Shown piece by piece: positions 23,854 through 46,856 of a stretch of 64,000 bases of DNA. The position numbers and the translations under genes were made by a program. Under the pieces are notes generated by a model. It saw nothing but the letters and a program-made list of their open reading frames with translations. It did no database searches and had not been told where the DNA came from. The stretch spans positions 160,001-224,000 of the forward strand of contig JBKAGE010000078.1 in NCBI GenBank assembly GCA_046290225.1. The letters run 5' to 3'. This DNA is from Bradymonadia bacterium. GTDB taxonomy: Bacteria; Myxococcota_A; Bradymonadia; UBA7976; UBA1532. Within the stretch, counting starts at the first letter, position 1. Each line of letters begins with the position of its first letter.

Positions 23854-24954
23854 TCACTTCGCGCCAGCGGCGTCCAAGGCTGCGTTCATGGAGATCACCG
23901 CACGGGCGGTGGCCAGGAGGGGGTTCCCCTCCCAGTACTTGGGATCGTCGTTCTTCCAGGACCCGTCGGCCTTCTGCATCGACATGAGCTTGGTGATCAG
24001 ATCGTTGGCCCAGTTCCGGGGCCGGCCCTTGCCATCAGGGATGGTGGCTTCACCGTAGGCCTTCAGGGCGCTGGCAGCAGTCTGGTAGTAGTAGAAGAGG
24101 CTGGTCTGGCCCATGCCGGGGTGCTCGTCGAAGGTGTAGTTCTTCTTGATCCAGCCCCAGGCGGCGCCCACCCGAGGATCGCCCTTCTTCACATCGGTGA
24201 AGATCAGGCTCTTGAGGCCGGCGAAGGTCATGGCACCGTAGCTGGCGAGCTTGCCCTCCTTGCTCTTCGACGCGCCGGGCTCGTAAACGAACCCACCATC
24301 ATCACCGGCCCACCCCTGATCGTTGGACTCGGAGCGGTTCTGGCAACGGGAGATGAAGACCTCGGCCTTGCCCCACACGTCGCTCTTGGGGTCATAGTCG
24401 GTCTCTCGCAGAGCCTCGAGGGCGTACTGCAGATTGCTCAGATCAGGGCGCTCGTCGCCGCCGTAACCGATGCCTCCATAGTACTTGTCGGTGGGCTTGT
24501 ACTTCTGGTCCTCGTCAGTCTGGAACCGGGCGAGGAAGTCCTGGCCGCGCTTGATTTGGTCCTTGAACTTCACCTTGTCCACTGCGTGAAGGGCGATGAT
24601 GGCCAGGGCGGTGTTGTAGGTCGGGGTGGCGTCACCGCTGATGGCGCCGTCCGCCCGGGACTGGCTCACCAGCCAGTCTGCGGCGCGGCTGATGTAGGGG
24701 CCGTCGGCGTACCCATACTTGCGGTGGCTGCGGGCGAAGGCGGTGAGCACCATCGAGGTGAGGCCCACGTGGTTGCCATAGGACCCGGTCTTCTCGTCTT
24801 GCAGGCCCCGCAGAAAGCGCAGGCCCTTGTCGACGGACTTCTTGGCCTTGTCGGCCACAGCGGGGTCAACCCCCTGGCTCGACGCCACAGTGGGGGTCAC
24901 CAGGGTGAAAGCACCAAGGGCCAGAGCCCCCAAAGCGATACGCATAGACTTCAT
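23854..24954 (-). CDS. Exported prenyltransferase/squalene-cyclase-repeat (alpha/alpha barrel) protein
   Basis: Signal peptide MKSMRIALGALALG; QW-type repeats QSRADGAI and QKADGSW; RPDLSNLQYALEAL, SYGAMTFAGLKSL; AAGGAG RBS. Confidence 0.8.
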   Translation of the reverse strand: MKSMRIALGALALGAFTLVTPTVASSQGVDPAVADKAKKSVDKGLRFLRGLQDEKTGSYGNHVGLTSMVLTAFARSHRKYGYADGPYISRAADWLVSQSRADGAISGDATPTYNTALAIIALHAVDKVKFKDQIKRGQDFLARFQTDEDQKYKPTDKYYGGIGYGGDERPDLSNLQYALEALRETDYDPKSDVWGKAEVFISRCQNRSESNDQGWAGDDGGFVYEPGASKSKEGKLASYGAMTFAGLKSLIFTDVKKGDPRVGAAWGWIKKNYTFDEHPGMGQTSLFYYYQTAASALKAYGEATIPDGKGRPRNWANDLITKLMSMQKADGSWKNDDPKYWEGNPLLATARAVISMNAALDAAGAK

Positions 24955-25649
24955 GGCGCGCTCCTTTCGGGCTGGCCAGCAGCGCGGATCGACCAGATCA
25001 GCGCCACCACCGCCCATGCAATCAAGACAACCAGGCCCCACAACCAGGAGATGGGGTGAGCTTCCACCACTCCGCTGAGGGTCCCGGCATAGAACCAGGG
25101 ATCTTGCAATGTCGACAGGCCTGCGGCGTCGAGGGCCGAGCCCACAGGGTGCAGGCCCACGGTCAGCGATGACAACCAGGGCGAGGCTGAGGTGACACCG
25201 AACCACGGCGCCAGAATCACAGGCATCGAAGCCCACAGCATCGCCAGGGCCACCACCGGGGTCCACGCCCCACCTGCAGAGGCTGCTCGCCGATCGAGGG
25301 CATCGGCGACGATCACCCACAGCATGGCCCATGCGATGAGGCTCAGCGCTGGCGCAACCCGGCCTCCGGTACCCAACAGCGCACCCGTGATCACCACCGT
25401 GAGGGGTGGTACGAGCTCGAGGCAGACCAGCCTCGGGGTCCGGCGCGCCATCCGAAGGGCGGTTCGAATGCCCCAGTCCCGTCGCTTCTGGTCCTGGCCG
25501 ATGACCAGCCACGGCGCCAGCAGGGCGACACCCGCGAGAACCCATAGACGGGTGGCGAGCGGGTCCGGCAGCCACAGTGGCAGGCTGAGGGCACAGGCCA
25601 TGCCCACCAACCACCTCACCCAGCTCAGTCGCACCACCAGGCGCAGCAT
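24951..25649 (-). CDS. Hypothetical multi-pass membrane protein
   Basis: About six hydrophobic segments; stop overlaps the next ATG (ATGA). Confidence 0.65.
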   Translation of the reverse strand: MLRLVVRLSWVRWLVGMACALSLPLWLPDPLATRLWVLAGVALLAPWLVIGQDQKRRDWGIRTALRMARRTPRLVCLELVPPLTVVITGALLGTGGRVAPALSLIAWAMLWVIVADALDRRAASAGGAWTPVVALAMLWASMPVILAPWFGVTSASPWLSSLTVGLHPVGSALDAAGLSTLQDPWFYAGTLSGVVEAHPISWLWGLVVLIAWAVVALIWSIRAAGQPERSAP

Positions 25650-29461: not shown

Positions 29462-30277
29462 TCACAGCACCTCGGCGCACCCACCCCGACCACAGCCACC
29501 GACGAAGGCCCGCTCACCGGGCACCACCACCCGCTTGCACTTGCGGCATGGGTGCCCTTCTGCGCGGGTATGCTCCAGGCCACTCGTCCGATCGCGCTCC
29601 AGCTCTTCGGAGAGGGCCTTCTGACCCGCACCGAGGGCCTCCAAGGACCGAACAGCGGGGCCGATCTGAGCGATCATTTCGTCTTGTGTGAGCTGCCCTG
29701 GGCCAGATGCCCTGATCTCCACCACACCGAGGGCCAGGCGGCACTCCCAGGGGGTGGGCCAGAGATCGCTCAGGCGCCTCAGGGCCCAGCGCACCCTCGA
29801 CTCATGGGTCCACCAACGCCAGAGGGCGTCGTCGTCTGTCTCCATCGACAGCACTGCAATGGCAGAGTCCTTGATGGACCAGACCACCTCCGACATGCCC
29901 TTCACCCAGCCCTCCAGCGGCGGCTGTGGGGGACAGCACAGCCGCCCGGCCACGGGCACGGCCTCAGGGCCGACCAGTCTCAAGGTCACGGACCACCCAC
30001 GGCGATCGAGGGACCACGAAGCTGTGATCTCTCCATAGTCGGAATGCACTCTGATCTCGGGACGGCCAGCGCCGCTCCAGTGCACCTTGAGCTCACCACC
30101 CAGAGCCTTCGCCGCAGAGCTCCACGCCGCCCCCGGCGACCGTTCACGGGTCAACTGCCTCTCTACCAGGGCCACGAGGGCAGGCAGCGCGAGGCACAGA
30201 CCCGCTATGGCCCACCAGAGCAGGTCGCCCTCTCGAGGCCCGAGGGCGGCCCACAGAGTTGTCACGTTCACCCCCAT
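29462..30277 (-). CDS. Hypothetical membrane protein with C-terminal Cys cluster
   Basis: N-terminal TM; C-terminal CRKC...CGRGGC; divergent from the sigma54 activator. Confidence 0.55.
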   Translation of the reverse strand: MGVNVTTLWAALGPREGDLLWWAIAGLCLALPALVALVERQLTRERSPGAAWSSAAKALGGELKVHWSGAGRPEIRVHSDYGEITASWSLDRRGWSVTLRLVGPEAVPVAGRLCCPPQPPLEGWVKGMSEVVWSIKDSAIAVLSMETDDDALWRWWTHESRVRWALRRLSDLWPTPWECRLALGVVEIRASGPGQLTQDEMIAQIGPAVRSLEALGAGQKALSEELERDRTSGLEHTRAEGHPCRKCKRVVVPGERAFVGGCGRGGCAEVL

Positions 30278-30293
30278 CTCCTATCTTCGAGCG

Positions 30294-33200
30294 ATGTCCA
30301 GAGGCAATCCACCCCCACCCTTCTCTCTGGGCCTCGCCCGGGCCCTCAACGGGTCGGACGTGGTCCCTGATCTCTTCGGCCGTGTAGATGAGCTCGGGCG
30401 ACTGAGAGGGCTGCTCGAGGAAACTCGGCAGACCCAATCGGGCCGCTCCGCGCTGGTCACCGGCATCCCAGGCATCGGCAAGAGCCGCCTGCTCACTGAA
30501 TTCAAGCGTGAGCTGACCGCCCGGAGCGAGGTGGTCTTCGAGGCCCGCTGCCAGCCTGCAGATGGCCGCCCATATGGTGCGCTCACTGATCTTCTGGGTC
30601 GTGGCGCTCAGCTGCTCGCCGATCTGGGCGCTCCCGGACACCACATCGATCACGCCCTGGCTCTCATCGCCGGCCAGCCGGGCCCTGTGGCGCATGACCC
30701 GGAAGCTGATCCCGTGGACCAGCGACTTCGCTTTCCGGAAACCCTCCGCAGAGCCTTCATCGAGCTCGCCGCCGTACGTCCTGTTGTCTGCCTCGTGCAC
30801 GACGTGCATCACGCCGATCCGGCCACCCTCCGCGTGCTCCACTACCTCGTAGAGAACCTGCTGGCCGATCCGGCTTTTGCCTGGATCACCGAGGGGCTCG
30901 CCGCCGATCAAGCGCCGGCACCTGAGCAATTTCAGGGCTTGCTGGTGATGTCTTTCGAAGAAGGGCCCACGACACGACCACTCATCGAGTTGTCCCAGGC
31001 GAGCAGCGCCGTGGCCCACCTCGCTCTCGAAGGGCTCGACGAAGCGGGGATCAGAGCATTCCTGCAGTCGGATCTGGTGGTGAAGCGGGTCATGCAGGCC
31101 ACTGAGGGGGTCCCGCTGGCTTTAAGCCACCTTCTGGCCTCGATTCCTCGACAACCCATCGACTTCTGGGCCCAGCGCCTGAAACAGGCAGCTCAAGCCG
31201 CAGGGCCGGTCCTCGACGTCCTGGCGGCCTTCAACCGGCCTGTGGCTTTCGAACAGCTGAGGGTTCTGCTGGCGTCACCGGAGATGGCCGCAGCTCAACT
31301 GCCTCTACTGGTGGAGAGTGGCCTGGTAAAGCGCACGCTCGATCGAGGAGAGGCGCTGTTCACCTTCGTCCGCAGCGACGCCCGGCTGACACACTACCGG
31401 GCCATGTCCGCCGATCGCCGACGCCTCGTACACGTGCACATCGCCGAGCATCTCTCCGGCGGCGCTGGCCTCGGAGTCCCTGCAGAAGAGGTCGCCCAGC
31501 ACTTCATCGCCGCTGAGGTCCCAGAGCGAGCGCTCACCTATGCCCTCATGGCCGCCGACCGCCTCGAGGCAGGGCAGTCCTATGCCCGGGCCGCCCGGCT
31601 TCTGGAGCAGGTGGTCGACGCGGCGAGCGGGGCAGATCGACTCACGGTGCTGGATCGACTCTCGGCCTTGTACGTGCTCACGGGGCTCTACGACGCAGGC
31701 ATCGAGACCACCATGGCCACCACGGCCGTCGATCCCGATGCGCTGCGCGATCCTGCACGGGCACTGCACCTCACCCGTTTGTACTTGCTCGCTGGTAAAC
31801 CGCGCCTCGCAGCACAGGTGGTCGATGAAGCCATCAGCACGGGAGTGAGCGTTCCCACGGCCCGGCGGGCGCTCTGGTCTCTCGCAGGAGAAGCGCAATA
31901 TCTGCTCGGCGCCGGTGACGAGGCCCTTGCCCGATGCGAGAACTTCGACACCTCGTCGGTCGACCGCCACGCCCTCTCGATCCGCAACACCCAGGGCAAG
32001 GTCTTTCTCTCGCGGGAGGCCCACGAGCGGGCCTACGAGCTCTTCGCCCGCAACCTCGACGATGCCCGAGCCATCGGCGACGCCACGCAGGAGCTCAAAG
32101 CGCTGCTCAACCTCGGCGTGGTCCATCTGCAACGGGGTGACACAGAAGGCGCCACCGAGGCCTTCGAGCATGCCCAACGTCGGGCAGAAGCCCACGGCGA
32201 CCTGCTCCATCTCGCCATCGCCTTGTTCAACCTCGGCGTGCTCTATCACCGCCACCAACGGTTCTCTCAAGCGCTCGAGGGCTACCACCGCGCAGCCTCG
32301 GCCTTCCGAAAGCTCGGAGAGCACACCAAGGTGGTGAGCGCCATCCTCAACCTCGCAGATCTCTACGTCACCGTGGGTGATCTCGATCGAGCCCAGCGCC
32401 TCGTGGCCATCGCCCGGACCAACATCACCATGGGTCGCGGCCCTGCGAGCACAGCCCAGGTGATGCTCCTCGAGGGCGACATCGCCCGAGCTCAGGGGCA
32501 GCTCGACCTCGCCGCAGCGCGATATGAGGAGGTCTGCCAGGAGGTGGAGCGCGGAGGTCACCATCTCCGGCTCGGGCAGGTCTTGTGGGCTCAGGCCGAG
32601 CTGATGCTCGAGAAAGGCGATCTCACTGCAGCAGGCCACCTTCTCGACCGCGCCGAGGAGCTGCCAGAGACCACGCGCACCAGCAGCCTCAGCGCACGCT
32701 GGCGCATGACTCGGGGCACGGTCTTCGAAGCCATGGGCGAGCCCCAAAAGGCCCTCGATGTGCTCAAGATGGCGTGTGAAGCCCTCGAGGCCCTCGATGA
32801 CCGCGACGTGCACGGTCAGGCCCTCTGGCGCCTCGCCCGTGCGCGCTGGGCGGTCTCTGATCGCCCCGGCACCCTCGAAGCTCTGGCCCGGGCGTCGGAG
32901 GCCATGCAGGCCGTGGCCAGCGAGCTGCCTGATCATCTCAAGGGCCGATACCTCAGCAGCGGCGCCCGCAAAGAGATCCGTGAGGCGCTGACGCGTGTGC
33001 GCGCAGGCCGAGCGCCCAAGGCGCCGCTGAAAGCTCAGCCCAGAACTGAGCAGATGCCCCGACAGTCCCTCGCCTTCAACCCCGCCTGGGAAGGTCGATA
33101 CCCCCACATCATCGGCCGCGCCGACGCGCTCTACTCTGTGTTCAACACCCTCGACAAAGTCTCGGGCTCGAGCAACATGGTCCTCCTCCGAGGCGAGTCG

Positions 33201-34238
33201 GGCACAGGCAAAGAGCTCGTGGCGGCGGCGCTCCACCGAAACAGCCCGAGACACGGCCACCCCTTCATCAAGGTGAATTGCGCAGCCTTTGTGGAGACCC
33301 TGCTGCTCAGCGAGCTGTTCGGCCACGAGAAAGGGGCGTTTACGGGTGCTGTGACCCGAAAGAAAGGCCGCTTCGAGCTCGCCGACAAGGGCACGCTGTT
33401 CCTCGACGAGATCGGCGACATCAGCCCCAACACGCAGGTGGCCTTGCTTCGCGTGTTGCAGGAAGGCGTCTTCGAGCGCGTGGGCGGCTCCGAGTCCATT
33501 CAGGTGGACGTCCGGGTGATCTGCGCCACCCACCGCAACCTCGAGGCCATGGTGCGTGACGGTGAGTTCCGCGCCGATCTCTACTATCGACTCCGCGGCG
33601 TGATCATCGAGCTACCCGCCCTCCGAGATCGCCAGGGCGACATCCCCCTGCTCGTGGAGCACTTCCTCAATCGCAGAGTTCGAGCCGGCCAGCGCCCCCT
33701 CCGGTTCAGCAGAGAGGGGTTGGCGAGCCTGATGGAGCACGACTGGCCAGGAAACATCCGCGAGTTGGAGAACGTGGTGCGCAGCGTGGCGCTCTTTGCC
33801 GACGGTGACACCATCGGCCTCGGCGAGCTGGGCGAGCTGACAGACATTTTTAAGCCGCCCTCAGAAGAGTCCCTTCTGCACCTCGACGAGCTCACTCACG
33901 CGCGGCAGACGCCCCCCCCGCCGATCCCCGTTTCAGCCGCAGTGGAGGCCCCTTCACCCACCCCTCCGGAGGGCCCCACGGGCGAGGCAGAGGCCCCTTC
34001 ATCCCCCTCCGCCCGCCTCGTAGAGGACTGGTTGAGTCAGCTGCTGGAGGAAGAAGGAAGTTTGTCCGATGTAAAAAAGCGCATAGAATTCGAGGCCATC
34101 GCCCGAGCTCTACGTTCGACCCACGGGAATATCACCCGGGCGGCGGAGAAATTGGGGATGAAAAGGCCGCGACTTTCGCAGATAATCCATGGGAATCAGG
34201 CCCTCGGCCAACTCAAACGAGAGGTGAGCCAGTCATGA
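30294..34238 (+). CDS. Sigma54-dependent enhancer-binding protein with N-terminal STAND-type NTPase and TPR array
   Basis: LFGRVDEL...GIPGIGKS; TPRs (ALLNLGVVHLQRGD, ALFNLGVLY, AILNLADLY); GESGTGKE, ELFGHEKGAFTGA, LFLDEIG, WPGNIRELEN; Fis-type HTH. Confidence 0.9.
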   Translation: MSRGNPPPPFSLGLARALNGSDVVPDLFGRVDELGRLRGLLEETRQTQSGRSALVTGIPGIGKSRLLTEFKRELTARSEVVFEARCQPADGRPYGALTDLLGRGAQLLADLGAPGHHIDHALALIAGQPGPVAHDPEADPVDQRLRFPETLRRAFIELAAVRPVVCLVHDVHHADPATLRVLHYLVENLLADPAFAWITEGLAADQAPAPEQFQGLLVMSFEEGPTTRPLIELSQASSAVAHLALEGLDEAGIRAFLQSDLVVKRVMQATEGVPLALSHLLASIPRQPIDFWAQRLKQAAQAAGPVLDVLAAFNRPVAFEQLRVLLASPEMAAAQLPLLVESGLVKRTLDRGEALFTFVRSDARLTHYRAMSADRRRLVHVHIAEHLSGGAGLGVPAEEVAQHFIAAEVPERALTYALMAADRLEAGQSYARAARLLEQVVDAASGADRLTVLDRLSALYVLTGLYDAGIETTMATTAVDPDALRDPARALHLTRLYLLAGKPRLAAQVVDEAISTGVSVPTARRALWSLAGEAQYLLGAGDEALARCENFDTSSVDRHALSIRNTQGKVFLSREAHERAYELFARNLDDARAIGDATQELKALLNLGVVHLQRGDTEGATEAFEHAQRRAEAHGDLLHLAIALFNLGVLYHRHQRFSQALEGYHRAASAFRKLGEHTKVVSAILNLADLYVTVGDLDRAQRLVAIARTNITMGRGPASTAQVMLLEGDIARAQGQLDLAAARYEEVCQEVERGGHHLRLGQVLWAQAELMLEKGDLTAAGHLLDRAEELPETTRTSSLSARWRMTRGTVFEAMGEPQKALDVLKMACEALEALDDRDVHGQALWRLARARWAVSDRPGTLEALARASEAMQAVASELPDHLKGRYLSSGARKEIREALTRVRAGRAPKAPLKAQPRTEQMPRQSLAFNPAWEGRYPHIIGRADALYSVFNTLDKVSGSSNMVLLRGESGTGKELVAAALHRNSPRHGHPFIKVNCAAFVETLLLSELFGHEKGAFTGAVTRKKGRFELADKGTLFLDEIGDISPNTQVALLRVLQEGVFERVGGSESIQVDVRVICATHRNLEAMVRDGEFRADLYYRLRGVIIELPALRDRQGDIPLLVEHFLNRRVRAGQRPLRFSREGLASLMEHDWPGNIRELENVVRSVALFADGDTIGLGELGELTDIFKPPSEESLLHLDELTHARQTPPPPIPVSAAVEAPSPTPPEGPTGEAEAPSSPSARLVEDWLSQLLEEEGSLSDVKKRIEFEAIARALRSTHGNITRAAEKLGMKRPRLSQIIHGNQALGQLKREVSQS

Positions 34239-35221
34239 AGATGCGACGCCCCATTCAGCGACACCGCTTCTTCTCCCGCACCCACGTCGGTGTGCTGGCT
34301 GGTGCCCTCATGGCGCTGACGGCCTGTGGCGAGGGTCTGCACGACGATGCTGGCCTCTCCGGCGCCGAAGCTGCCCCGACCCATGACTCTGCCGCTGACG
34401 GTCTGCACATCACCCCTCATGTCGAGCTCCTCGGTCTCGAAGACATCTACGCCGACTTCGAGCTGACGCACCTCGACTTCACCGCCCGCCTGTTCCTGTT
34501 GCCTGCTGATGGCAGTGCCGCGGGTGTGAGCGCCGAGCTCGACGTGGCCTTCGAGAACGGCCACGTCTACACCACACTCAACACAGAGCAGCTGGTCCTG
34601 GCTCAGGGCGGCACCTACGACGTGCTCCTGGGCATCTACCCCGCTTCGAGCCGCGCCTCGGTGGTCATCGGCGGCAAGGTCGACCTGCCTGCGCAGGACG
34701 TGCCAGGCCTCGACGCCCGCGGGAAGGCTGAAGAGGGCGACGACTTCGACGAGATGCCCAACCTCGAGCCGGTGCCCATGCCCGCCCGCAACCCGGCGGA
34801 CGATCCTGGCGAGGCCTCTTCGGGGAACGACGAGCCGGTGCCCATGCCTGCCCGCAACCCCGAGTCTTCTGATCCGCACTCTGAGCCGGTGCCCATGCCC
34901 GCTCGCAACCGCGGAAAGGGCGATCTGCCAGAAGAGCACGAGTCCAGCCACAACGAGGTGGGCATCCCCGGTGAGTACGAGGTGTCAGGCGCGGGTGAGC
35001 CCGTCTTCGTTCAGTCCCGTCGCATCTTCGAGTTCCGCGTGGGCCGCATCGCCCTCACGGATGACACCCGCGAGCTGTGGGTGACCTGGGATGTGAGCGA
35101 ATGGCTCAGCAACCTCATCGCCGATGCCTTTGGTGAGCCCACTGAAGACTCCACGTCGAACGATCCGAACGACGGCTTCTCGGATACGACCCGCAGCTTC
35201 TCCCTCTCGAGTCGCAACTAG
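34235..35221 (+). CDS. Hypothetical acidic lipoprotein with three EPVPMPARN repeats
   Basis: Lipobox LMALTAC; ATGA overlap with the activator; GAGG RBS. Confidence 0.8.
   Translation: MKMRRPIQRHRFFSRTHVGVLAGALMALTACGEGLHDDAGLSGAEAAPTHDSAADGLHITPHVELLGLEDIYADFELTHLDFTARLFLLPADGSAAGVSAELDVAFENGHVYTTLNTEQLVLAQGGTYDVLLGIYPASSRASVVIGGKVDLPAQDVPGLDARGKAEEGDDFDEMPNLEPVPMPARNPADDPGEASSGNDEPVPMPARNPESSDPHSEPVPMPARNRGKGDLPEEHESSHNEVGIPGEYEVSGAGEPVFVQSRRIFEFRVGRIALTDDTRELWVTWDVSEWLSNLIADAFGEPTEDSTSNDPNDGFSDTTRSFSLSSRN
34766..34909 (+). repeat. Three 27-bp in-frame coding repeats (EPVPMPARN)
   Basis: Copies at 34766-34792, 34832-34858, 34883-34909; only synonymous differences. Confidence 0.95.
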
Positions 35222-35224
35222 CTG

Positions 35225-35285
35225 GCTCCGGCGCTTCGGTGGCGCCAGCCGCTCTTTGCTCCGGCGCTTCGGCGGCGCCAGCCGC
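35225..35285. repeat. Two 28-bp REP-like hairpin direct repeats
   Basis: gctccggcgcttcggYggcgccagccgc at 35225-35252 and 35258-35285, one mismatch. Confidence 0.85.
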
Positions 35286-38364: not shown

Positions 38365-41300
38365 TTAATCGGTGGTGTGGCCCACGACCTTGCGGAGGTA
38401 GCGGAGGTCGGACATCAGGTCCACCATCTCGCCCAGGCGGCGCTCAGCCTCCTGGTAATCAGAGAGGCGAGCCGCGATCTCGGCGTCGGTGAACTCGGGG
38501 ATCACCACCTCGCCATTCTCGTCCTCACTGGGCAGGGTCTCCTGCCAGGCGTCGAAGGCCGCCGTCCACTCACCGTCGACGTAGGCCTGAGCGCGGGTCA
38601 GCAGCTCGAAGCTGATGGACCCGCCCTCGTAGGTCTCGGGGGCCTTGTAGGTGAGGCCAGTGGTCGGGTGCACGAAGGTGGCCACCGGGGTGCCCTCGAC
38701 GAACTGACGATCCTCGCCAGAGCCCGCCTCGATCACCGTGATGTACTCCACGAAGTCGTTCTTGGCGTCGTAGGTCGAGGTGTTGAACACCGCGCTCATG
38801 AGCAGGCCACGCCATGCGATGGAGTAAGGTAGGCCCGACTGCAGGCGGGGCATGCCCTCGGTCTCCGGAGCGAGGCCCGTACCGAAGGTGTTGTAGTCGA
38901 TGAGGCGGGGGGGCACCACGCCGTCCTGGCTGATGGCGCTGTTGAACGAAGTCGCCTCGCGATCACCGAGCATGCTGAACACCATGTCGCGGATCAGGTT
39001 CACGATCTCGGGACGGAAGGTGCGGTAGTAGCCGATGGAGAACCGACGGCTGTCACCGAGCCAGGCCCGGAAGAACAGCGAGCTGGTGTCGAACATCGAC
39101 AGCAGGAAGTTGGCCTTGTCGTAGTAGGTACCGATGTAGTCGACGTACCCGAGGTACTGATCGCTGAACTCGATGTTCTGCTTGCGACCCACACCCTCGG
39201 CGATCTCGATGCTGTCGGCCTCACAGGCCTCGCGATCCATGAAGCCCGCAGGCATGTAGACGTTCTCGTCGGCGCTCAGGCAGTAACGCCCGGGCTCGGG
39301 AATGCCCAACACCTGGCTGATGAAGTTCAGGCCCAGCACCACCGACTGCAACATGTCCTGCTCCAGGTACAGCTCGCTGTACTGGTAGAAGTAGTAGAAG
39401 CGGAAGGGGTAGGTCAGGTAGGCCTGCAGCCGGCTCTGGCGACCGAAGAAGCCGTTGATGAAGCTGAACTCCGTCCGGCCGCGACGGTAGTTGTTGAACA
39501 TGTAGTAGTTCCAGTAGTTCTGGATGGCCGATGCCACAGCTTCAGTATGGTTGGCGCCCTCGTCCCAGGTGCGGCAGGTCAGGTTGCCGTTGTAGATGTC
39601 GGCGCAGTACTCGTAGGGCACAGTGCGGTCGATCCACCACTCGTCGGCGTTGATGCGACGGTTGCCGGTGAGCATCTCGGTGTTGCGGAGCACACCGTCG
39701 ACACGCTGCTGGAGCAGGTCGTCGAAGAGCACGTCCTTGCGGGCGTTGAAGTTCTCGCTGCCACCGAAGAGGGACGGCAGGTGCTCGAAGCCGTGGATGA
39801 GGTTCGAGATGAAGGGCGCGTAGTACACCACCTTGGGCACCACGTTCTCGTCCCAAGCCTCCACTTGGCGGAAGTAGCCGAACTTGACGGCGGCGTAGTC
39901 GTACTTGCCGAGGCCCTTGGTGTCGCTGTGGAAGCGACCGCCGTAGTCCATGATCGAGCCGTACTGGTACTCGGGCAGGCGCTCGTTCTTCCACTCAGCA
40001 GGGTCGACGTTCTGACGGATCTGCCAGTACTCGTCCTGGTAGTTCAGGCTGTCGAAGCTCGAGGCGAAGTTGTGGGTCAGACCCACAGTGTGGCCGATCT
40101 CGTGGAGCATGACGGCCTTGTAAATCTCCCGACGCAGGGTCTGGTAGATGACCTCAGGATCCTCACCACGCAGGGACAAAGCCAGGCCGATGACCGAGTC
40201 GTCCATGAACTCGGGCAGGTACATGTTGCGGTCCATGAAGAACTTGTCGCGACCCTGAAGCTGCTCACGCAGACGACCGGGCTGCAACGCGATGTCCATG
40301 GCGAGATCCTCGACGTCGATGTCTTCCATGCCGGGGCCCTTGAGCTTCTCGGCGAGGATGAGATCACTGTCGGTGAGGAGCAGCGAGCGCATGCGGGGAT
40401 CAGCCTTGGCGCGGTCAAGGCGCACCTGAGCTTCGTCGGCGATGGCGCCACCGGCCTCCATGAAGGACGCGCTGTTGTCGCCGAGGCGACCCTTGGCGAA
40501 CTCCATGGCCATGGCGGGGTTGAGCTTCTGAGTCAGCTGAGTGATGGGGTCGAAGCCCTCGTCGAGGCGCTGAGAACCCATGCGACGGCGGACCTCGTCC
40601 TGCAGGTCAGCGGTGAGGAACTGAGGCTGGCCAGCAACGTTGGGGGTGTCGTCGACCCAGTTGTTGTAGCTCTCGCCGCTGATCAGGCCGCCGACGTACT
40701 CGTCGTCGTTGATGGCCAGGACGATGTCGGCGGCGTAGCGAGCGTAGCGATCGACAGCGGCGCCGTAGACGTAGGCGTTGCCGCTGATGATCTCGCCGGT
40801 CTCGGGATCCTTGGAGCTGGGGCCGAAGCCGAGGGGGCCGCCGGCCTGATCCTCGTTGACCCAGTAGACGTAGCTGTAACGCACGTCACCGACCTGCTGC
40901 CACTCGAAGCTCTGAGCGAGACCGCGCTTGACGCTCTCGTTGCGCAGGCCGGAGCAGGTGCGGATGAACATCTTGGTGGGGCTGTCCTCCTTGAGGCCCT
41001 CGCCGTAGGTGGCCTCTTCGACCACGCTCTCCATCTCGGGGTAGAGCCCGAGGTAACGCTGAACGCCAGCGTAGGAGCAGTTGTTCTCGCGGATCTGGAA
41101 CAGGGCCCGCTGATCGTAGTCACCGGTGAGGAAGATGCCGAAGTCGCCGCTGGCCTCGTAGTCGGCGGCGAGCTGGCTCTCGATCTCCTCGCGGCTCTTG
41201 CCGGTGGCGGACATGGCGCCGGCCATGTAGGCCTCGTTCCAGTCCTGACCGATCTCCACGGTGAGGGCCTTGAGATCCTCGGGGTACTCCACGTTCAGGT

Positions 41301-42636
41301 AGTAGACGATGGGCTGCAGCTCGCGCTCCGACATGGGGAGCTCGACCTTGTTGCCCTCGTCGTCCCGCATGACGTTGCCCTCGGCGTCCAGCTCATAGCT
41401 GGTCTTGAAGACGCGGTGCACGGTGGCGTTGAACTCGCGGTTCTCATCGATGGTGCCGAGGCGGCGGTCGTAGCCGAAGCGCTCGGTGCGGAAGTAGCCG
41501 AAGCGACCGAACTGCTCCTCGGTGACCACGCTGCGGCAGTCGTTCTCGAGGTCGAGCCAGTCGGGGGAGATGACGCCGTCGAGGTACTCCTTCAGCGCGG
41601 GGGTACAGGCGAAGTCCACGAGCAGAGCGGTGCACTCGCCGGCCATGCAGGCGCGGCCCGGGCCACACTGGTCGTTGCTCTCGCACTGCTCGGCGCAGAT
41701 GCCGCTGTCACCCTGGATGATGCAGGTGGCGTCCTCACCACACTGCACGGGGGTGTCACAGCTCTCGCCGAGGTTGCGCACGCTGGTGGCGTTGGCCTCG
41801 ATGGCGAAGATGGTGTCCACGGGCAGGCCGATGGTGCGCACCTTGCGCTTGTTCTCGTCACGGGCCTCGACGATGTCGGCATAGTCCCGGGGCTGGAACT
41901 TTTCGATGTCGTTGGGGTTCACCCGGTGGAACGAGTGCCGCAGCCGGACCTCGCCGGTGCCGCAGTTGAAGTTCCCGTAGGTGAAGTAGCAGTTGTAGGT
42001 CAGATCTTGAATCGTGTAGGTCTGCGTGATCTGGATGTAATCATCGGTGACGATGAGCGCATCAGGATCGAAGGTCTCGGTCTCGCGAACGAAGTCCTTG
42101 CTGCCGCCGTTGGCGTCGAAGCTCAACACGAAGTCCATGTAACCGGTGAAGTCGGACCCGCTGTTGATCGACGTCGGCGAGGCCCAGTCCACCCGAACAT
42201 AGTCACGCTCGTACCAGGGACGATCGCTGGTGTTCTCGGAGATGACGTTCGACCGCTCACCGGTGGTGGCGTTGTACTCACGGATGATGTCGAAGTAGTT
42301 CACCGGCCAGCCGATGACCGGATCACCCTGAAGCTCGCCGCCAGGCAGGGCCTCATCTTCGTTGAGCCCGGGGACCGACTCGTAGAGCCGGCGCACCTCG
42401 AGACCACCGTTGGTGAAGTCGAACTTCACCTTCTCCAGGTTGCCTTCGAGGCCCTGGAAGACGATGTCGGCCACCTCGGGGGCAACCTCGACCACCGTCT
42501 GACGGTAGTACCACTCACCCTCGAACATGCTCTTCTGCTGATAGTGGGGCTGCACCTTGTTGATGTCTTCAACAGGCTCAGCACACCCGAAGCCCATGAC
42601 GGTCAACATGGCCATGGACAGAGTGATGCGCCTCAT
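38365..42636 (-). CDS. Large zinc-dependent metalloprotease lipoprotein (metzincin), paralog B
   Basis: Lipobox MGFGC; HEIGHTVGLTHNF; Met-turn SIMDY; Cys-rich insert. Confidence 0.88.
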   Translation of the reverse strand: MRRITLSMAMLTVMGFGCAEPVEDINKVQPHYQQKSMFEGEWYYRQTVVEVAPEVADIVFQGLEGNLEKVKFDFTNGGLEVRRLYESVPGLNEDEALPGGELQGDPVIGWPVNYFDIIREYNATTGERSNVISENTSDRPWYERDYVRVDWASPTSINSGSDFTGYMDFVLSFDANGGSKDFVRETETFDPDALIVTDDYIQITQTYTIQDLTYNCYFTYGNFNCGTGEVRLRHSFHRVNPNDIEKFQPRDYADIVEARDENKRKVRTIGLPVDTIFAIEANATSVRNLGESCDTPVQCGEDATCIIQGDSGICAEQCESNDQCGPGRACMAGECTALLVDFACTPALKEYLDGVISPDWLDLENDCRSVVTEEQFGRFGYFRTERFGYDRRLGTIDENREFNATVHRVFKTSYELDAEGNVMRDDEGNKVELPMSERELQPIVYYLNVEYPEDLKALTVEIGQDWNEAYMAGAMSATGKSREEIESQLAADYEASGDFGIFLTGDYDQRALFQIRENNCSYAGVQRYLGLYPEMESVVEEATYGEGLKEDSPTKMFIRTCSGLRNESVKRGLAQSFEWQQVGDVRYSYVYWVNEDQAGGPLGFGPSSKDPETGEIISGNAYVYGAAVDRYARYAADIVLAINDDEYVGGLISGESYNNWVDDTPNVAGQPQFLTADLQDEVRRRMGSQRLDEGFDPITQLTQKLNPAMAMEFAKGRLGDNSASFMEAGGAIADEAQVRLDRAKADPRMRSLLLTDSDLILAEKLKGPGMEDIDVEDLAMDIALQPGRLREQLQGRDKFFMDRNMYLPEFMDDSVIGLALSLRGEDPEVIYQTLRREIYKAVMLHEIGHTVGLTHNFASSFDSLNYQDEYWQIRQNVDPAEWKNERLPEYQYGSIMDYGGRFHSDTKGLGKYDYAAVKFGYFRQVEAWDENVVPKVVYYAPFISNLIHGFEHLPSLFGGSENFNARKDVLFDDLLQQRVDGVLRNTEMLTGNRRINADEWWIDRTVPYEYCADIYNGNLTCRTWDEGANHTEAVASAIQNYWNYYMFNNYRRGRTEFSFINGFFGRQSRLQAYLTYPFRFYYFYQYSELYLEQDMLQSVVLGLNFISQVLGIPEPGRYCLSADENVYMPAGFMDREACEADSIEIAEGVGRKQNIEFSDQYLGYVDYIGTYYDKANFLLSMFDTSSLFFRAWLGDSRRFSIGYYRTFRPEIVNLIRDMVFSMLGDREATSFNSAISQDGVVPPRLIDYNTFGTGLAPETEGMPRLQSGLPYSIAWRGLLMSAVFNTSTYDAKNDFVEYITVIEAGSGEDRQFVEGTPVATFVHPTTGLTYKAPETYEGGSISFELLTRAQAYVDGEWTAAFDAWQETLPSEDENGEVVIPEFTDAEIAARLSDYQEAERRLGEMVDLMSDLRYLRKVVGHTTD

Positions 42637-42722
42637 CGGGGCTCCCTCTCGAAACGTGCTCGCGCCCTCATCGAGGGGGGCGGATTGAAAGGTCTTGAAC
42701 CAGTTCATCTTCTCTCCTCCTC

Positions 42723-45700
42723 TCAGCGGGTGACGGGGTTGTGCAGTTCGTCGATGACCCGAGTGAAGAACCGCATGTCGTCCATGAGCTCCACGAACTC
42801 GAGGAGTTCCTCGGTCTGCTGCTCGAGCAGCTCACGACGGGCGGGATCGCTGGGGTCTTGATCGTAGCTGTTCTTCGCGGGCTGCCAGTCGTTCGCCAGT
42901 CGGCGGTTGGCCTGCAACACCAGGTCGTAGGCCACCGACAGGCCGTCGGTGGTCTGTACGGCCTCGTAGATGGCGCCGTTCAGAGGGTTCTCGAAGGTGG
43001 CCACCTCGACCACATCGCGGTCGATCTCGGCACCGTCGATGGAGCCCTGCTCGAAGATACGAATGTAGTTCACGAAGTCGGTCTGACGGTCGTTGGTGCT
43101 CGTGGCGAGGACCGTGGCGTAGAACATGGTGTTCTGCAGGATGTCGTAGGACATGCGACCGTAGACCAGAGGCGCGTTGGCCATGGCGTCGGCGTTGGGA
43201 TCTTCCAGGTTGAAGTTCTCCGCGCTCACCAGCGGGCTCGGGGTGACCACGCCCTTGTTGTCGACGCGGTTGTAGAACCCGAAGGTGCCCACGAAGCCCT
43301 GACCAGCAAACAACATGTCACGCACCAGGTTCACCAGCTCGGGGCGGAACGACCGGTAGTAGTTGATGCTGAAGCGGCGCTCGTCGCTCTCGTCGCCCCA
43401 CCGGAAGAACCGGGTGTTGGAGTCGAAGAGATGGAAGACGATGCTGGACTTGTCGTAGTAGGTGCCCAGGTAGTCGATGTTGTAGAAGTACTGGTCATCG
43501 AAATCGAGGCTGAAGTCACGGCCGAGGCCGAGGCCGACGTCGATGCCCTTGGGGTACCCGTTGGTGTTCAGGTCGTCGGTGCAGTCGAAGGGATCGATGA
43601 GCCCGGTGAACCCGTTGGGGAAGTACTGGTTGAACTGGCTGCTGTAGCAGTAGCGGCCCGGCTCGGGGGTGGCGAGCACCTGCTGAACGAAGTTCAAGCC
43701 GATGAGTGACGCCTGGAGCAGATCCTCGGGCAGGTCGAAGCCGGCCTCGTACACCTCGGGGTTATCGTAGGCGTAGTAGAACTGGTAGAAGTTCCAGGGG
43801 TACACGAGGTACTCGGCGAGACGCGCCTGACGGCCGAAGTAGCCGTTGATGAAGGAGTACTCGTTGCGGCCCCGGCGGTAGTTGTTGAACAGGAAGTAGT
43901 TCCAGTAACGCTGAATCGCCGACTCCACCGCCTCGGTGTGAGAGGGGCCGTCGTCCCAGGTACGGCACCACAGGTCACCGCGGTACTCGTCAGAGCAGAA
44001 GTAATAGGGCACGACGCGGTCCCACCAGTAATCGGTGACGGCGCGATCGGGGTTCTCCACGAAGAGCTCGGCGTTGCGCACGATGCCCTCGGCACGATCG
44101 GCCATGACGTCGTCCACGCCGACATCGGTGCGGCGGTTGAAGTTGTCGGTGGAGCCCATCAGCTCGGGCAGCTTGGTGTAGCTGGTCATCTCCCGCACAG
44201 CCTTGAAGTTCGGCGGCACGGTGACATCGTCTTCGAAGGCCTCGAGCTTGCCGCCGTACACCATCTTGATGGCGGCGGTGTCGTACTTGCCAAGGCCCTT
44301 GGTGTCGGAGTTGAAGCGGCTGCCGTAATCCATGATGGAGGCGTAGCGGTACTCAGGGGAGCGAGCCTCGAAGCGCTGGCGGCGGTTGGCGGCGGTGGCC
44401 GCGGCGTCGCCCTCGACGTCGGGGTACTGGGCCCGGATGTCCCAGTACTCGTCCTGGTAGTTCAAGGCGTCGAAGCTGGCCTTGAAGTTGTGGCGCAGAC
44501 CGACGGTGTGGCCGATCTCGTGCAGCTGCACGGCCAAATAGATCTCCTCGCGGAGCTGACGCCACAGGGTCTCGGCGTCGAGATCCTTGAGGGCGAGCGC
44601 CTGACCGACGATGGCGTCATCGAGGAAGCTGGCCATGTACACGTTGTGCTCGGCGAGGAACGCGTTGCGCGCCTCACGGGCCTCGTTGAACTTGGCGGGG
44701 TTGGTCACCATGTCGAAGGCCATCTTCGACATCTCTTCGGAGACGTCGTCACCGGGGGACCAGTTGAAGAAGGGCGAGACCAGGGCGAGCATCTGGGGCG
44801 TCACCAGACGGGCGCGGATCTCGGGATCCTCGCGGAGCTGCTCGAGCATCTGCTGGCCGCTGCTCACGGGGCTGAGCACAGCCTGACCGAAGGGGTCATT
44901 CTGGCTGGGGTTCTTCACGCGATCCCGCATGTGGCGCATCATCGCCGCGGGGTTGAAGGTGCCGTCGGCGGCGACGAACTTGCGGAAGCCGGGGATGTCG
45001 GTGGTGCCGATGCGGGCCTGAATGGCCTGCTTCAACGCCGGGGTCATCTCCACCCGCAGGCCGGACTCGGTGGTGCCCTGCTGGTTCTCGATCCACTCGA
45101 GGTAGCTGATGCCCTCACGCAGGTCGAGGGGGAGGAAGCCCTCCTCACCGTTGAGGGCCAGCACGGTGTCGGCGGCGCTGCGGGCGTAGCTGTCGACGGC
45201 GGCGCCGTAGACGTGGGCGTTGCCTGACATGATCTGGCCAGTGAGAGGATCGGCGCTGGAGGGGCCATAGCCCAAGGGGCCCACAGGCTGGGACTCGTTC
45301 ACCCACACCACGTAGCTGTTGCGGGGATCACCGAGCTGCTGCCACTGGAAGATGTCCTCCTTGGCGTAGTTCCACTCGGTGGAGAAGTAGTTCAGCCCGG
45401 AGCAGACGCGCTCGAGGTTGCCGGGGAGCACCCCCTGCCCTTCGCTGGCGTCGGCCACGACCTGCTCCATGGCAGGGAAGCGCTCGACGTAGTCGGCGAT
45501 GCCGTCGGCGGAGCAGGTGTTCTCACGGATCACGTAGAGGTGGCGATCACCGTAGCGGGCCTCGAGATCGGCCTCGATGTCGCTGCGGCTGCGGCCGGTT
45601 GCGGCCATGGCGGCGGCCATGAAGGTGTCGTTCCAGTCCTCCATGAGCTTGTGGGTGACGGAGATGGTGTTGCCGTCACGATCCTGCCAGAGGCCTTCGA

Positions 45701-46856
45701 TCTGGGGGGTCCAGAGATCCTCGGGGTAGCCCACGTTCGTGTAGTAGACGATGGGGCGCAGTTGGCGGTCGGCCATGGGGATCAGGTTGCCCTCGTCATC
45801 TTTGACGCGCTCCCACATACGGTGGTGGTTGGCGTAGTAGCGACGGGTGAGATCGTGGCCGGGCTCGAGGCGCCGATCGTACACGGTACGCTCGGTGCGG
45901 AAGAAGCCGAACTGCGTGTGCATGTCGACCTGCAGGTCGCGGCAGTCACGTTCGGTGAGGTTGGGGTTGCGCGTGGCGAGGGTGTCGAGGACCTCGGGGG
46001 TACAGGCCACGTCGATCATCTGGTCGCCGGCGCCCACGGTGATGTAGCGCAGGCGGTTGCCCTCGGCGTCACGGAGCAGCACGCGATCCTGGTACTGCAC
46101 GGGCTCGAAGAGCTGATCTTCAGTCTCGGTGTCGATCTTCACGAAAGCGCTGCGCACACCGATCTCGGTGGGGCCACAGGTGAGATCGCCGTAGAGAGGC
46201 TGGCCGTAGTTCACGAGACAGCCGAAGCCGCCATCAGACGCCATGAAGCGGTTGGTGAACATGATGGCGTCATCTTCGATGCGAATGCGCCGGGGGTCGA
46301 AGGGGTCGTACTCGTCGGAGACATACTCGGCGGCGGCGCCGTTGGCCCGCATCATGCCGTCGAAGTCCACCTGGGAGCTGATCATGTTGGTGGACCAGTC
46401 CACCCGGATGTAGTCGCGCTCGTGCCAGGGACGCAGCGACTCGTCCTCGACGAGCACGTTCGACTGACCACCTGTCTGCTCATTGAACTGACGGATGATG
46501 TCGAAGTGCTTGGTGATCTGGTAAGCCGCCACGGGCTCACCGAGGAAGTCCTCGCGCTCCGGGAGATCGTTGGCGTTGAGGCCAGGTACAGCCTCGTAAG
46601 ATTTCCGGGCGACGAGCTGGTCTTCCCGAATCTCCCAACGAATCCGCTCGAAACCGGCCTCGAGGCCCACGAAGGCCATGGCGGTCTCTGGGGGAACGTC
46701 CACGACGGTCTGGCGGAAATACCAGTCGCCGGAGAATTGTTGCTTCTCAACGTAATCGGGCTGAACCCGGTTGACGTCTTTGACCTCTTCGCCACACCCA
46801 AGGGTGAAGAGTGAAGCGGCGATCATTGCTGCCCCGAGCTTTCGGCTCAAGTGCAT
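42723..46856 (-). CDS. Large zinc-dependent metalloprotease lipoprotein (metzincin), paralog A
   Basis: Lipobox FTLGC; HEIGHTVGLRHNF; SIMDY; collinear similarity to paralog B. Confidence 0.88.
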   Translation of the reverse strand: MHLSRKLGAAMIAASLFTLGCGEEVKDVNRVQPDYVEKQQFSGDWYFRQTVVDVPPETAMAFVGLEAGFERIRWEIREDQLVARKSYEAVPGLNANDLPEREDFLGEPVAAYQITKHFDIIRQFNEQTGGQSNVLVEDESLRPWHERDYIRVDWSTNMISSQVDFDGMMRANGAAAEYVSDEYDPFDPRRIRIEDDAIMFTNRFMASDGGFGCLVNYGQPLYGDLTCGPTEIGVRSAFVKIDTETEDQLFEPVQYQDRVLLRDAEGNRLRYITVGAGDQMIDVACTPEVLDTLATRNPNLTERDCRDLQVDMHTQFGFFRTERTVYDRRLEPGHDLTRRYYANHHRMWERVKDDEGNLIPMADRQLRPIVYYTNVGYPEDLWTPQIEGLWQDRDGNTISVTHKLMEDWNDTFMAAAMAATGRSRSDIEADLEARYGDRHLYVIRENTCSADGIADYVERFPAMEQVVADASEGQGVLPGNLERVCSGLNYFSTEWNYAKEDIFQWQQLGDPRNSYVVWVNESQPVGPLGYGPSSADPLTGQIMSGNAHVYGAAVDSYARSAADTVLALNGEEGFLPLDLREGISYLEWIENQQGTTESGLRVEMTPALKQAIQARIGTTDIPGFRKFVAADGTFNPAAMMRHMRDRVKNPSQNDPFGQAVLSPVSSGQQMLEQLREDPEIRARLVTPQMLALVSPFFNWSPGDDVSEEMSKMAFDMVTNPAKFNEAREARNAFLAEHNVYMASFLDDAIVGQALALKDLDAETLWRQLREEIYLAVQLHEIGHTVGLRHNFKASFDALNYQDEYWDIRAQYPDVEGDAAATAANRRQRFEARSPEYRYASIMDYGSRFNSDTKGLGKYDTAAIKMVYGGKLEAFEDDVTVPPNFKAVREMTSYTKLPELMGSTDNFNRRTDVGVDDVMADRAEGIVRNAELFVENPDRAVTDYWWDRVVPYYFCSDEYRGDLWCRTWDDGPSHTEAVESAIQRYWNYFLFNNYRRGRNEYSFINGYFGRQARLAEYLVYPWNFYQFYYAYDNPEVYEAGFDLPEDLLQASLIGLNFVQQVLATPEPGRYCYSSQFNQYFPNGFTGLIDPFDCTDDLNTNGYPKGIDVGLGLGRDFSLDFDDQYFYNIDYLGTYYDKSSIVFHLFDSNTRFFRWGDESDERRFSINYYRSFRPELVNLVRDMLFAGQGFVGTFGFYNRVDNKGVVTPSPLVSAENFNLEDPNADAMANAPLVYGRMSYDILQNTMFYATVLATSTNDRQTDFVNYIRIFEQGSIDGAEIDRDVVEVATFENPLNGAIYEAVQTTDGLSVAYDLVLQANRRLANDWQPAKNSYDQDPSDPARRELLEQQTEELLEFVELMDDMRFFTRVIDELHNPVTR

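Follow-up and report, generated by a model that had tools for sequence, protein, structure and literature searches.

A sigma-54 activator and a proline-motif lipoprotein form a widely conserved, apparently undescribed gene pair in Myxococcota

The DNA studied here is a 64,000-nucleotide stretch (the window) from a Bradymonadia bacterium of the Myxococcota_A (assembly GCA_046290225.1, contig JBKAGE010000078.1, positions 160,001 to 224,000). Two overlapping genes in it encode a STAND-like/TPR/sigma-54 enhancer-binding protein (P0001, 1314 amino acids, 30294..34238; the activator) and a lipoprotein (P0002, 328 amino acids, 34235..35221; the partner). Coordinates are those of the window, on the forward strand unless stated otherwise. 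We conclude that these genes represent a genuine regulator-lipoprotein pair, conserved over a wide range of lineages, apparently undescribed and built around a short proline motif. The novelty attaches to the pair, and a ligand-receptor link between its members is what we infer from it. An earlier note, made from the letters of the window, had proposed such an undescribed system, and its description of the two genes stands: they overlap by ATGA (34235-34238), and the first encodes an NTPase, a TPR array, an intact GAFTGA-containing AAA+ domain and a helix-turn-helix (HTH) with no receiver domain, as borne out by Pfam and by the motifs of 14 orthologs. The second encodes a lipoprotein with three identical nonapeptides in a loop (lipobox in 24/24 homologs; copies at 34766, 34832 and 34883). 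The pair is bordered in the window by a divergent gene with no assigned function and by a convergent clpB, and no kinase adjoins it, again as the note had it. A full-text search found no published description of the pair; supplements and most subscription papers lie outside its scope, and domain-architecture tables may list the activator.

Conservation of the pair and its motif

Within the class Bradymonadia the two genes occur together. Each is carried by the same 22 of 24 genomes of the window's own family, and an activator ends directly upstream in 18 of 19 other partner loci. Among 58 genomes of the class both genes were found in 51, neither in 7 and one alone in 0, but these genomes are related and 79-100% complete, and the counts, not being independent, describe a pattern and are not a statistical test. 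For this count the activator was accepted at E<1e-60, one partner match covering only the signal peptide (G036) was set aside, and three divergent partners, identified by reading the sequence that follows their activators, were included. Adjacency is usual but not required, since the partner has moved away from the activator in at least four genomes (G015, G032, G244, G303). In a 301-genome sample of the phylum a partner profile matched 49 genomes, all of the window's class, and 0 of the 243 genomes outside it. Titled records with the beta-sandwich type of partner belong to Bradymonadia, Bradymonadales, Persicimonas and Lujinxingiaceae.

Outside the class the folded body of the partner is replaced or absent and bodies vary by lineage. 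The pair itself extends further. Contigs were scanned for the HTH signature of the activator, and the 80 stretches listed, of at least 119 found, are the basis of the partner set described below. Among the matches listed, the pair reaches Polyangiaceae (Sorangium cellulosum So ce56, Chondromyces apiculatus), Labilithrix, Sandaracinaceae and Haliangiales, and none of these 80 stretches comes from Myxococcus or its close kin. A lipobox-containing open reading frame (ORF) of 93-374 amino acids (median 130) follows the activator in 75 of the 80 listed loci; in Polyangiaceae these partners are mostly about 95-160 amino acids long and of low complexity. The other five loci were dropped, two being cut by contig ends and three failing the filter, and direct reading of two of the latter (L177 and L192) reveals a lipobox ORF with the proline motif.

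The sequence P-x-P-x-P is present in 65 of the 75 listed partners, compared to a mean of 10.8 and a maximum of 18 after shuffling, and its Trp-ending form occurs in 29 (shuffled, 0.18). The consensus over these partners is (G)-(D/E)-P-x-P-x-P-(W/A/S/F), set in an acidic disordered stretch. A single copy is found in 32 partners, 22 have two and 11 have at least three, and nine of the ten partners missing P-x-P-x-P carry a shorter P-x-P variant. The window's own genome serves as a baseline: of its 283 lipoprotein-like ORFs, 27 contain P-x-P-x-P and 1 has the Trp/Phe-ended form. In a later set of 20 regions, one of which repeats a protein of the earlier set and five of which lack an activator end, 14 activator ends were flagged; 13 are followed by a lipobox ORF and 11 by the motif (shuffled, 2.5), which direct reading also shows in L282 and L284. 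When all 154 distinct activator ends having 500 nucleotides downstream are taken together, a lipobox ORF starts between -40 and +260 nucleotides from 149 of them, with a 4-nucleotide overlap in 75, and a broader pattern, chosen after the fact, finds the motif at 141. Lipobox and proline motif are the only features common to partners of different families.

Duplicated activators each have their own partner with its own motif variant (L109, L102/L136, L176/L199). Partners of the window's family carry 3-9 copies of a 7-residue motif unit, whose sequence is constant within one protein but differs between genera. Elsewhere in the class there is mostly a single copy, ending in Trp or Phe. The earlier note's proposal would have been refuted by homologs that lack a linked repeat-bearing gene, and this comparison did not refute it: linkage is near-universal and the pair duplicates as a unit. 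Its expectation of linked short Pro-rich repeats holds in part, as the motif is shared across partner families but is present in one or two copies, not as repeats, in 54 of the 75 listed partners. Likewise the proline element is conserved, but comparison of the sequences indicates that the conserved unit is a P-x-P-x-P core of about 6-7 residues and not the whole nonapeptide.

A 31-column profile of the motif, applied to five genomes, was uninformative: it placed the cognate gene at the top in two, which is circular as both are in its alignment, and missed it in three. Two other roles for the motif were considered and rejected: an X-Pro pro-spacer removed by a dipeptidyl peptidase, as nothing is conserved after the motif, and a RiPP precursor, as a modifying enzyme is not a conserved neighbour. 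In one lineage (L125, L126, L142, L146, L148, L189, L205, L206, L217, L220) the third proline is displaced by two residues, and some of its partners add a second, ordinary copy.

The partner lipoprotein

The partner has no Pfam, NCBIfam or PADLOC family, and Pfam gave no match for any of 24 members. It starts with a lipoprotein signal peptide (34235..34327) that ends at the lipobox Cys31. This cysteine is invariant in 24/24 aligned homologs, which were chosen by similarity, and is followed at position +2 by Gly or Ala in 22 of the 24. An AlphaFold2 model from the 24-row alignment (mean pLDDT, the predicted local confidence, 71.6) predicts a class-specific beta-sandwich in two confident halves (34403..34681 and 34997..35215), separated by a disordered loop of about residues 150-254 (pLDDT about 50) in which the nonapeptides lie. 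These are residues 178-186 (34766..34792), 200-208 (34832..34858) and 217-225 (34883..34909). Their DNA differs at two synonymous sites only, and the nonapeptide was not found elsewhere in six frames of the 8.58 Mb genome. R-x-K sequences before (34718..34726) and after (34910..34918) the repeat block are candidate processing sites. The arrangement of the modelled fold weakly resembles transthyretin-type and MbnP domains; all VIA matches are below Z 8 (best Z 7.1; MbnP Z 6.2 over 152 residues with a root mean square deviation of 3.9). Foldseek gave no match at E<=0.001, and in the Atlas comparison, where all matches are under 0.9, the TM score with DUF4382 is 0.35.

Another lipoprotein-like ORF of the genome (C37:409594-410751, reverse strand) has several Pro/Asp-rich repeat blocks together with Cys-rich domains, in an unrelated context.

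The activator

The C-terminal part of the activator has the properties of an intact sigma-54 motor. Sigma54_activat (PF00158) matches residues 939-1105 with 228.7 bits (33108..33608), including the GAFTGA motif at 33333-33350. GAFTGA, both Walker motifs, the arginine fingers and sensor II are intact, and 14 orthologs show no or almost no variation in them. A Fis-type HTH (HTH_8, PF02954) covers residues 1263-1292 (34080..34169), and its recognition helix is a signature of the family. No receiver domain is found among the best 25 of the 28 Pfam families matched. The genome holds one rpoN and 42 ORFs with a sigma-54 AAA+ domain, of which the activator is the sole one of STAND/TPR type. All NCBIfam matches listed for the activator fall below their cut-offs, and PADLOC gives generic AAA+/TPR matches with no Avs-type match. 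The activator is a bona fide enhancer-binding protein, neither a LAL regulator nor a member of RRNPP, and on its own it adds a new variant to a class of proteins that is already known.

The N-terminal AAA_16 (STAND-type) domain spans residues 27-188 (30372..30857; 87 bits, cut-off 32.6), and residues 21-420 gave no sequence match to any solved structure. The Walker A motif is canonical (30462-30485) and the first Asp of Walker B is replaced by His169. A canonical Walker A motif is kept by 21 of 53 homologs (14 of 18 in the window's family, 0 of 17 in f6), and none of the 53 has the two acids of Walker B. The earlier note had compared the protein to MalT as a ligand-triggered switch; an ADP/ATP switch of that kind is doubtful because Walker A is so often changed and both Walker B acids are found in none. 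The STAND part looks partly decayed and, to judge from these substitutions, may serve as an autoinhibitory scaffold and not as a MalT-type switch.

In the central region Pfam matched TPR_12 and TPR_MalT, the latter with 46.7 bits against a cut-off of 45. The best conserved part is a core of about residues 530-700 (31881..32393), a candidate peptide-binding site with residues E533, R564, N565, K569, K602, N606, N646 and N686. Among 96 sequences the best-kept polar residues are N646 (99%), N606 (98%), K569 (93%), N686 (89%), N565 (88%) and E533 (85%), and basic residues are also well kept at positions 564 and 602. If the register derived from the TPR consensus is right, these residues sit on helix A and would line the concave face; PMC6468293 describes TPR arrays as curving toward the helix A side. 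The nearest solved natural TPRs are those of LGN/GPSM2, Pins and kinesin light chain (KLC), which are peptide binders, and LGN is described as structurally similar to RRNPP TPRs in PMC7430634. The groove residues would fit an acidic extended peptide, though not specifically. The possibility that the motif is an internal pseudo-ligand of the activator was rejected, as P-x-P-x-P occurs in 6 of 72 activator linkers only.

Transcription signals

Three sigma-70-like sites were found where 0.5 would be expected. One, a weak match (9 of 12 positions, 30259..30287), ends 7 nucleotides before the ATG of the activator; by its position the activator transcript is possibly leaderless, and in the upstream regions of relatives this promoter is not evidently conserved. 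An internal site, ATGAAA-17-GATAAT (34158..34186), lies within the HTH codons. In 19 loci of the family the third-position GC content drops to 5-47% at several of these codons, while the AAA+ domain has 87%. G023 and G015 do not show this drop; in both, the partner lies apart from the activator, and a similar element is found in the DNA upstream of the partner itself. TTGAC-type sites precede the detached partners of G032 and G244. The partner is thus probably driven by its own sigma-70-like promoter. A sigma-54 scan of 28-39 kb of the window gave two-mismatch sites only, and no sigma-54 promoter was found there before the activator or the partner.

The gap between partner and clpB (35225-35285) contains two 28-nucleotide direct repeats, 96% alike and 33 nucleotides apart, each of which can form a G+C hairpin with a TTCG loop; they could be REP-like elements or a terminator.

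Possible mechanisms

The comparisons show obligate pairing of the two genes, an export signal on the partner, a motif that is conserved whatever body surrounds it, and a conserved TPR groove. We favour, tentatively and with rather less than firm belief, a dedicated receptor-ligand pair in which the motif is released from the partner, imported and read by the TPR domain. In this mechanism the lipoprotein would be a propeptide tethered to the membrane. Cleavage within its disordered part, in the window's family perhaps at the flanking R-x-K sequences, would free the proline core, which would resist general proteases and could enter the cytoplasm via an oligopeptide permease. There it would bind in the TPR groove and relieve a MalT-type autoinhibition, after which the AAA+ domain would oligomerise and activate sigma-54 promoters elsewhere. 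Extra motif copies would raise the dose. The input could be cell density, or envelope proteolysis and damage, and regulation could be of either sign. The genome encodes 9 oligopeptide-type binding-protein loci, and SbmA/BacA was not found in this 99% complete assembly. Three points favour release after export: the lipid anchor never varies and would matter only once the protein has been exported, cores with alternating prolines resist proteolysis, and R-x-K sequences flank the repeats on both sides in 12 of 19 family rows, compared to 3 of 142 background windows.

That the TPR domain recognises the motif in some form, whether in this way or in one of two ways considered below, we regard as probable, and a role of the motif as TPR ligand is what the comparisons of both proteins suggest. 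In its broadest form the proposal would be of a widespread peptide-signalling system of predatory and social Myxococcota with an architecture unrelated to Gram-positive RRNPP, in which a protease-resistant proline peptide, kept in the envelope by a lipoprotein, is read once released by an NLR-like STAND/TPR sigma-54 activator as a signal of density or self-damage, with lineage-specific variants; we put this forward as a possibility, with some reserve.

Several observations weigh against release, import and recognition. No conserved protease or transporter neighbours the pair at its loci. No sigma-54 promoter precedes the partner, which leaves no obvious autoinduction loop. With a degenerate STAND NTPase in 32 of 53 homologs, nucleotide switching as in MalT may not apply. 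Many partners of the window's family have 5-9 motif copies, often in gapless tandem, and such a block looks too long for import by a permease unless it is trimmed. Asn ladders, with Asn at position 6 of the repeat, are frequent among TPRs of this class, which makes the groove signature unspecific. The dependence among the class genomes, noted above, counts here as well.

Some of these difficulties are avoided if the pair is an export monitor, a reading that we consider unlikely though the best of the alternatives. The TPR domain would bind the motif on unexported precursor that piles up when Sec jams, tandem copies would scaffold activator oligomers, and an envelope-stress regulon would be switched on. 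This needs neither a protease nor an importer, and none is linked to the pair. The separate sigma-70-like promoter fits a constitutive reporter, and gapless tandem arrays suit avidity or a multivalent cytoplasmic ligand. The lineage-specific neighbours of the pair include clpB, cyclophilin and DsbD, but each of these is confined to one lineage. A further difficulty is that the lipobox is kept in 24/24 homologs and 149/154 loci, yet any Sec signal would do for a monitor of this kind.

Another way around the compartment problem is that the motif is read outside the cytoplasm by a different receptor, for example the PrsK-like membrane histidine kinase encoded next to or near the pair in Polyangia, with the activator merely co-transcribed or acting indirectly in the same pathway. 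Of 160 loci examined, 45 have the membrane domain of this kinase, 17 of the 18 loci from Polyangiaceae among them, and its gene mostly comes next to the pair; a copy is present in the window's genome on another contig (C34:196261-198456). It resembles PrsK below the cut-off and is a single-copy membrane/GAF protein with no adjacent response regulator in the loci read (e.g. L139:6756-8894). However, the kinase was not found in 27/27 genomes of family f6 or 8/8 of f3, in both of which the pair is almost universal. Conversely, it is matched in 121 of 301 phylum genomes, many of them without the pair; all 18 genomes of f21 have it, and 3 of these match the activator signature. The activator, too, has no receiver domain. 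In Polyangia the kinase is a real alternative as receptor, but overall this arrangement seems unlikely.

The motif could also be without a signalling role, serving as an inert linker or as a site of modification; the partner would then be an ordinary lipoprotein whose gene merely lies in one operon with that of an orphan sigma-54 activator. Pro-rich linkers are common, as the 27 of 283 lipoprotein-like ORFs with P-x-P-x-P illustrate, and slippage can produce tandem copies. An inert linker fails to explain why the motif, Trp/Phe-ended in many lineages, survives where the body is unrelated or unstructured, nor does it explain joint duplication and joint absence, and we regard it as improbable.

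Least probable of all is a contact or kin tag, in which the lipid-anchored motif passes between cells through vesicles or outer-membrane exchange and is read, perhaps with an inhibitory effect, by the TPR domain of the recipient, its lineage-specific variants serving as identity: the invariant lipobox, the uniform variants within a protein that differ between genera and between duplicated pairs, and the precedent of lipoprotein transfer between myxobacterial kin, reported as established for M. xanthus (PMC11287280), suit it, but TraB was not found at the family cut-off in the genome, close relatives share one variant so that strain-level diversity is not evident, and cytoplasmic entry is left unexplained.

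Comparison with known systems

The dedicated receptor-ligand pair would most resemble RRNPP systems (Rap-Phr, PlcR-PapR, NprR-NprX, Rgg-SHP, PrgX), which likewise have a cytoplasmic TPR regulator, an adjacent gene for an exported partner and a short variable peptide. PMC7430634 defines RRNPP proteins by an N-terminal effector and a C-terminal TPR domain, describes their peptides as secreted, processed, reimported and then bound by the TPR domain, and documents that Gram-positive bacteria use TPR receptors for intracellular peptide signalling. In the pair, by contrast, the TPR array is central in a 1300-residue STAND/AAA+ protein, the effector is C-terminal and the output is sigma-54 dependent. 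Its host is Gram-negative and its named relatives are Myxococcota. The precursor differs as well, being lipidated, longer (93-374 amino acids) and provided with an internal, often repeated proline motif. Neither Pfam nor NCBIfam gave a match to an RRNPP family. By analogy the activator may nonetheless work like one.

With MalT and the LAL regulators, as described in PMC6468293, the activator seems to share the order of a NOD-like domain, helical arm, TPR sensor and C-terminal effector. The effector is however a sigma-54 AAA+/HTH_8 unit and not a LuxR/GerE HTH, and the proposed inducer would be a gene-encoded peptide. The intact GAFTGA AAA+ motor and the HTH are those of the NtrC/NifA/PspF class, in which PspF-PspA likewise includes a separate partner protein; the activator differs in its STAND/TPR input and in having an exported partner.

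PEP-CTERM systems with PrsK, PrsR and PrsT include a membrane kinase, a TPR component and a regulator that acts with sigma-54, and their exported proteins bear a short proline motif. By this account the component types would be the same, and PrsK is also what the kinase found close to the pair in Polyangia resembles, below the cut-off. The motif of the pair differs in not being a sorting signal at the C-terminus with a transmembrane helix; in addition, the activator lacks a receiver, and the kinase was not found in f3 and f6, which have the pair. In BASS, the amyloid signalling motifs associated with bacterial NLRs, an NLR-like gene, according to bioRxiv 10.1101/2020.01.06.895854, stands beside a partner with a short, sometimes repeated motif, an arrangement like that of the pair. 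The BASS motif as described there is Pro-depleted and present in both partners, whereas that of the pair is Pro-based and occurs in only 6/72 activator linkers.

If the proposed recognition is true, a receptor-peptide pair of Gram-negative predators would be a separate solution that combines an NLR-like scaffold with a sigma-54 motor. An orphan STAND/TPR sensor would gain a candidate ligand, a peptide of 6-7 residues that can be synthesised, and cultured carriers exist in Sorangium cellulosum So ce56 and Chondromyces apiculatus.

Neighbouring genes

The pair loci have no other universal neighbour gene. The divergent gene of the window (29462-30277, reverse strand) starts 16 nucleotides from the activator start and has no Pfam family; a divergent gene recurs at this position in family f1. 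A cyclophilin gene precedes the pair in families f3 and f6, and DsbD/thioredoxin genes follow it in several small families (L127, L128, L129, L284). In Sandaracinaceae-type loci (L121:2858-4276, L122:2200-3762) a second sigma-54 activator, apparently of FHA type as judged by eye, comes immediately before the STAND/TPR activator.

Elsewhere in the window, two tandem lipoprotein-like genes of about 1400 amino acids with a zincin (DUF4953-like) motif occupy 38365-46856 on the reverse strand. On the same strand, 23854-25250 encodes an exported protein that by eye is prenyltransferase/squalene-cyclase-like; its gene belongs to a cluster that also codes for an ABC ATPase and for membrane proteins.

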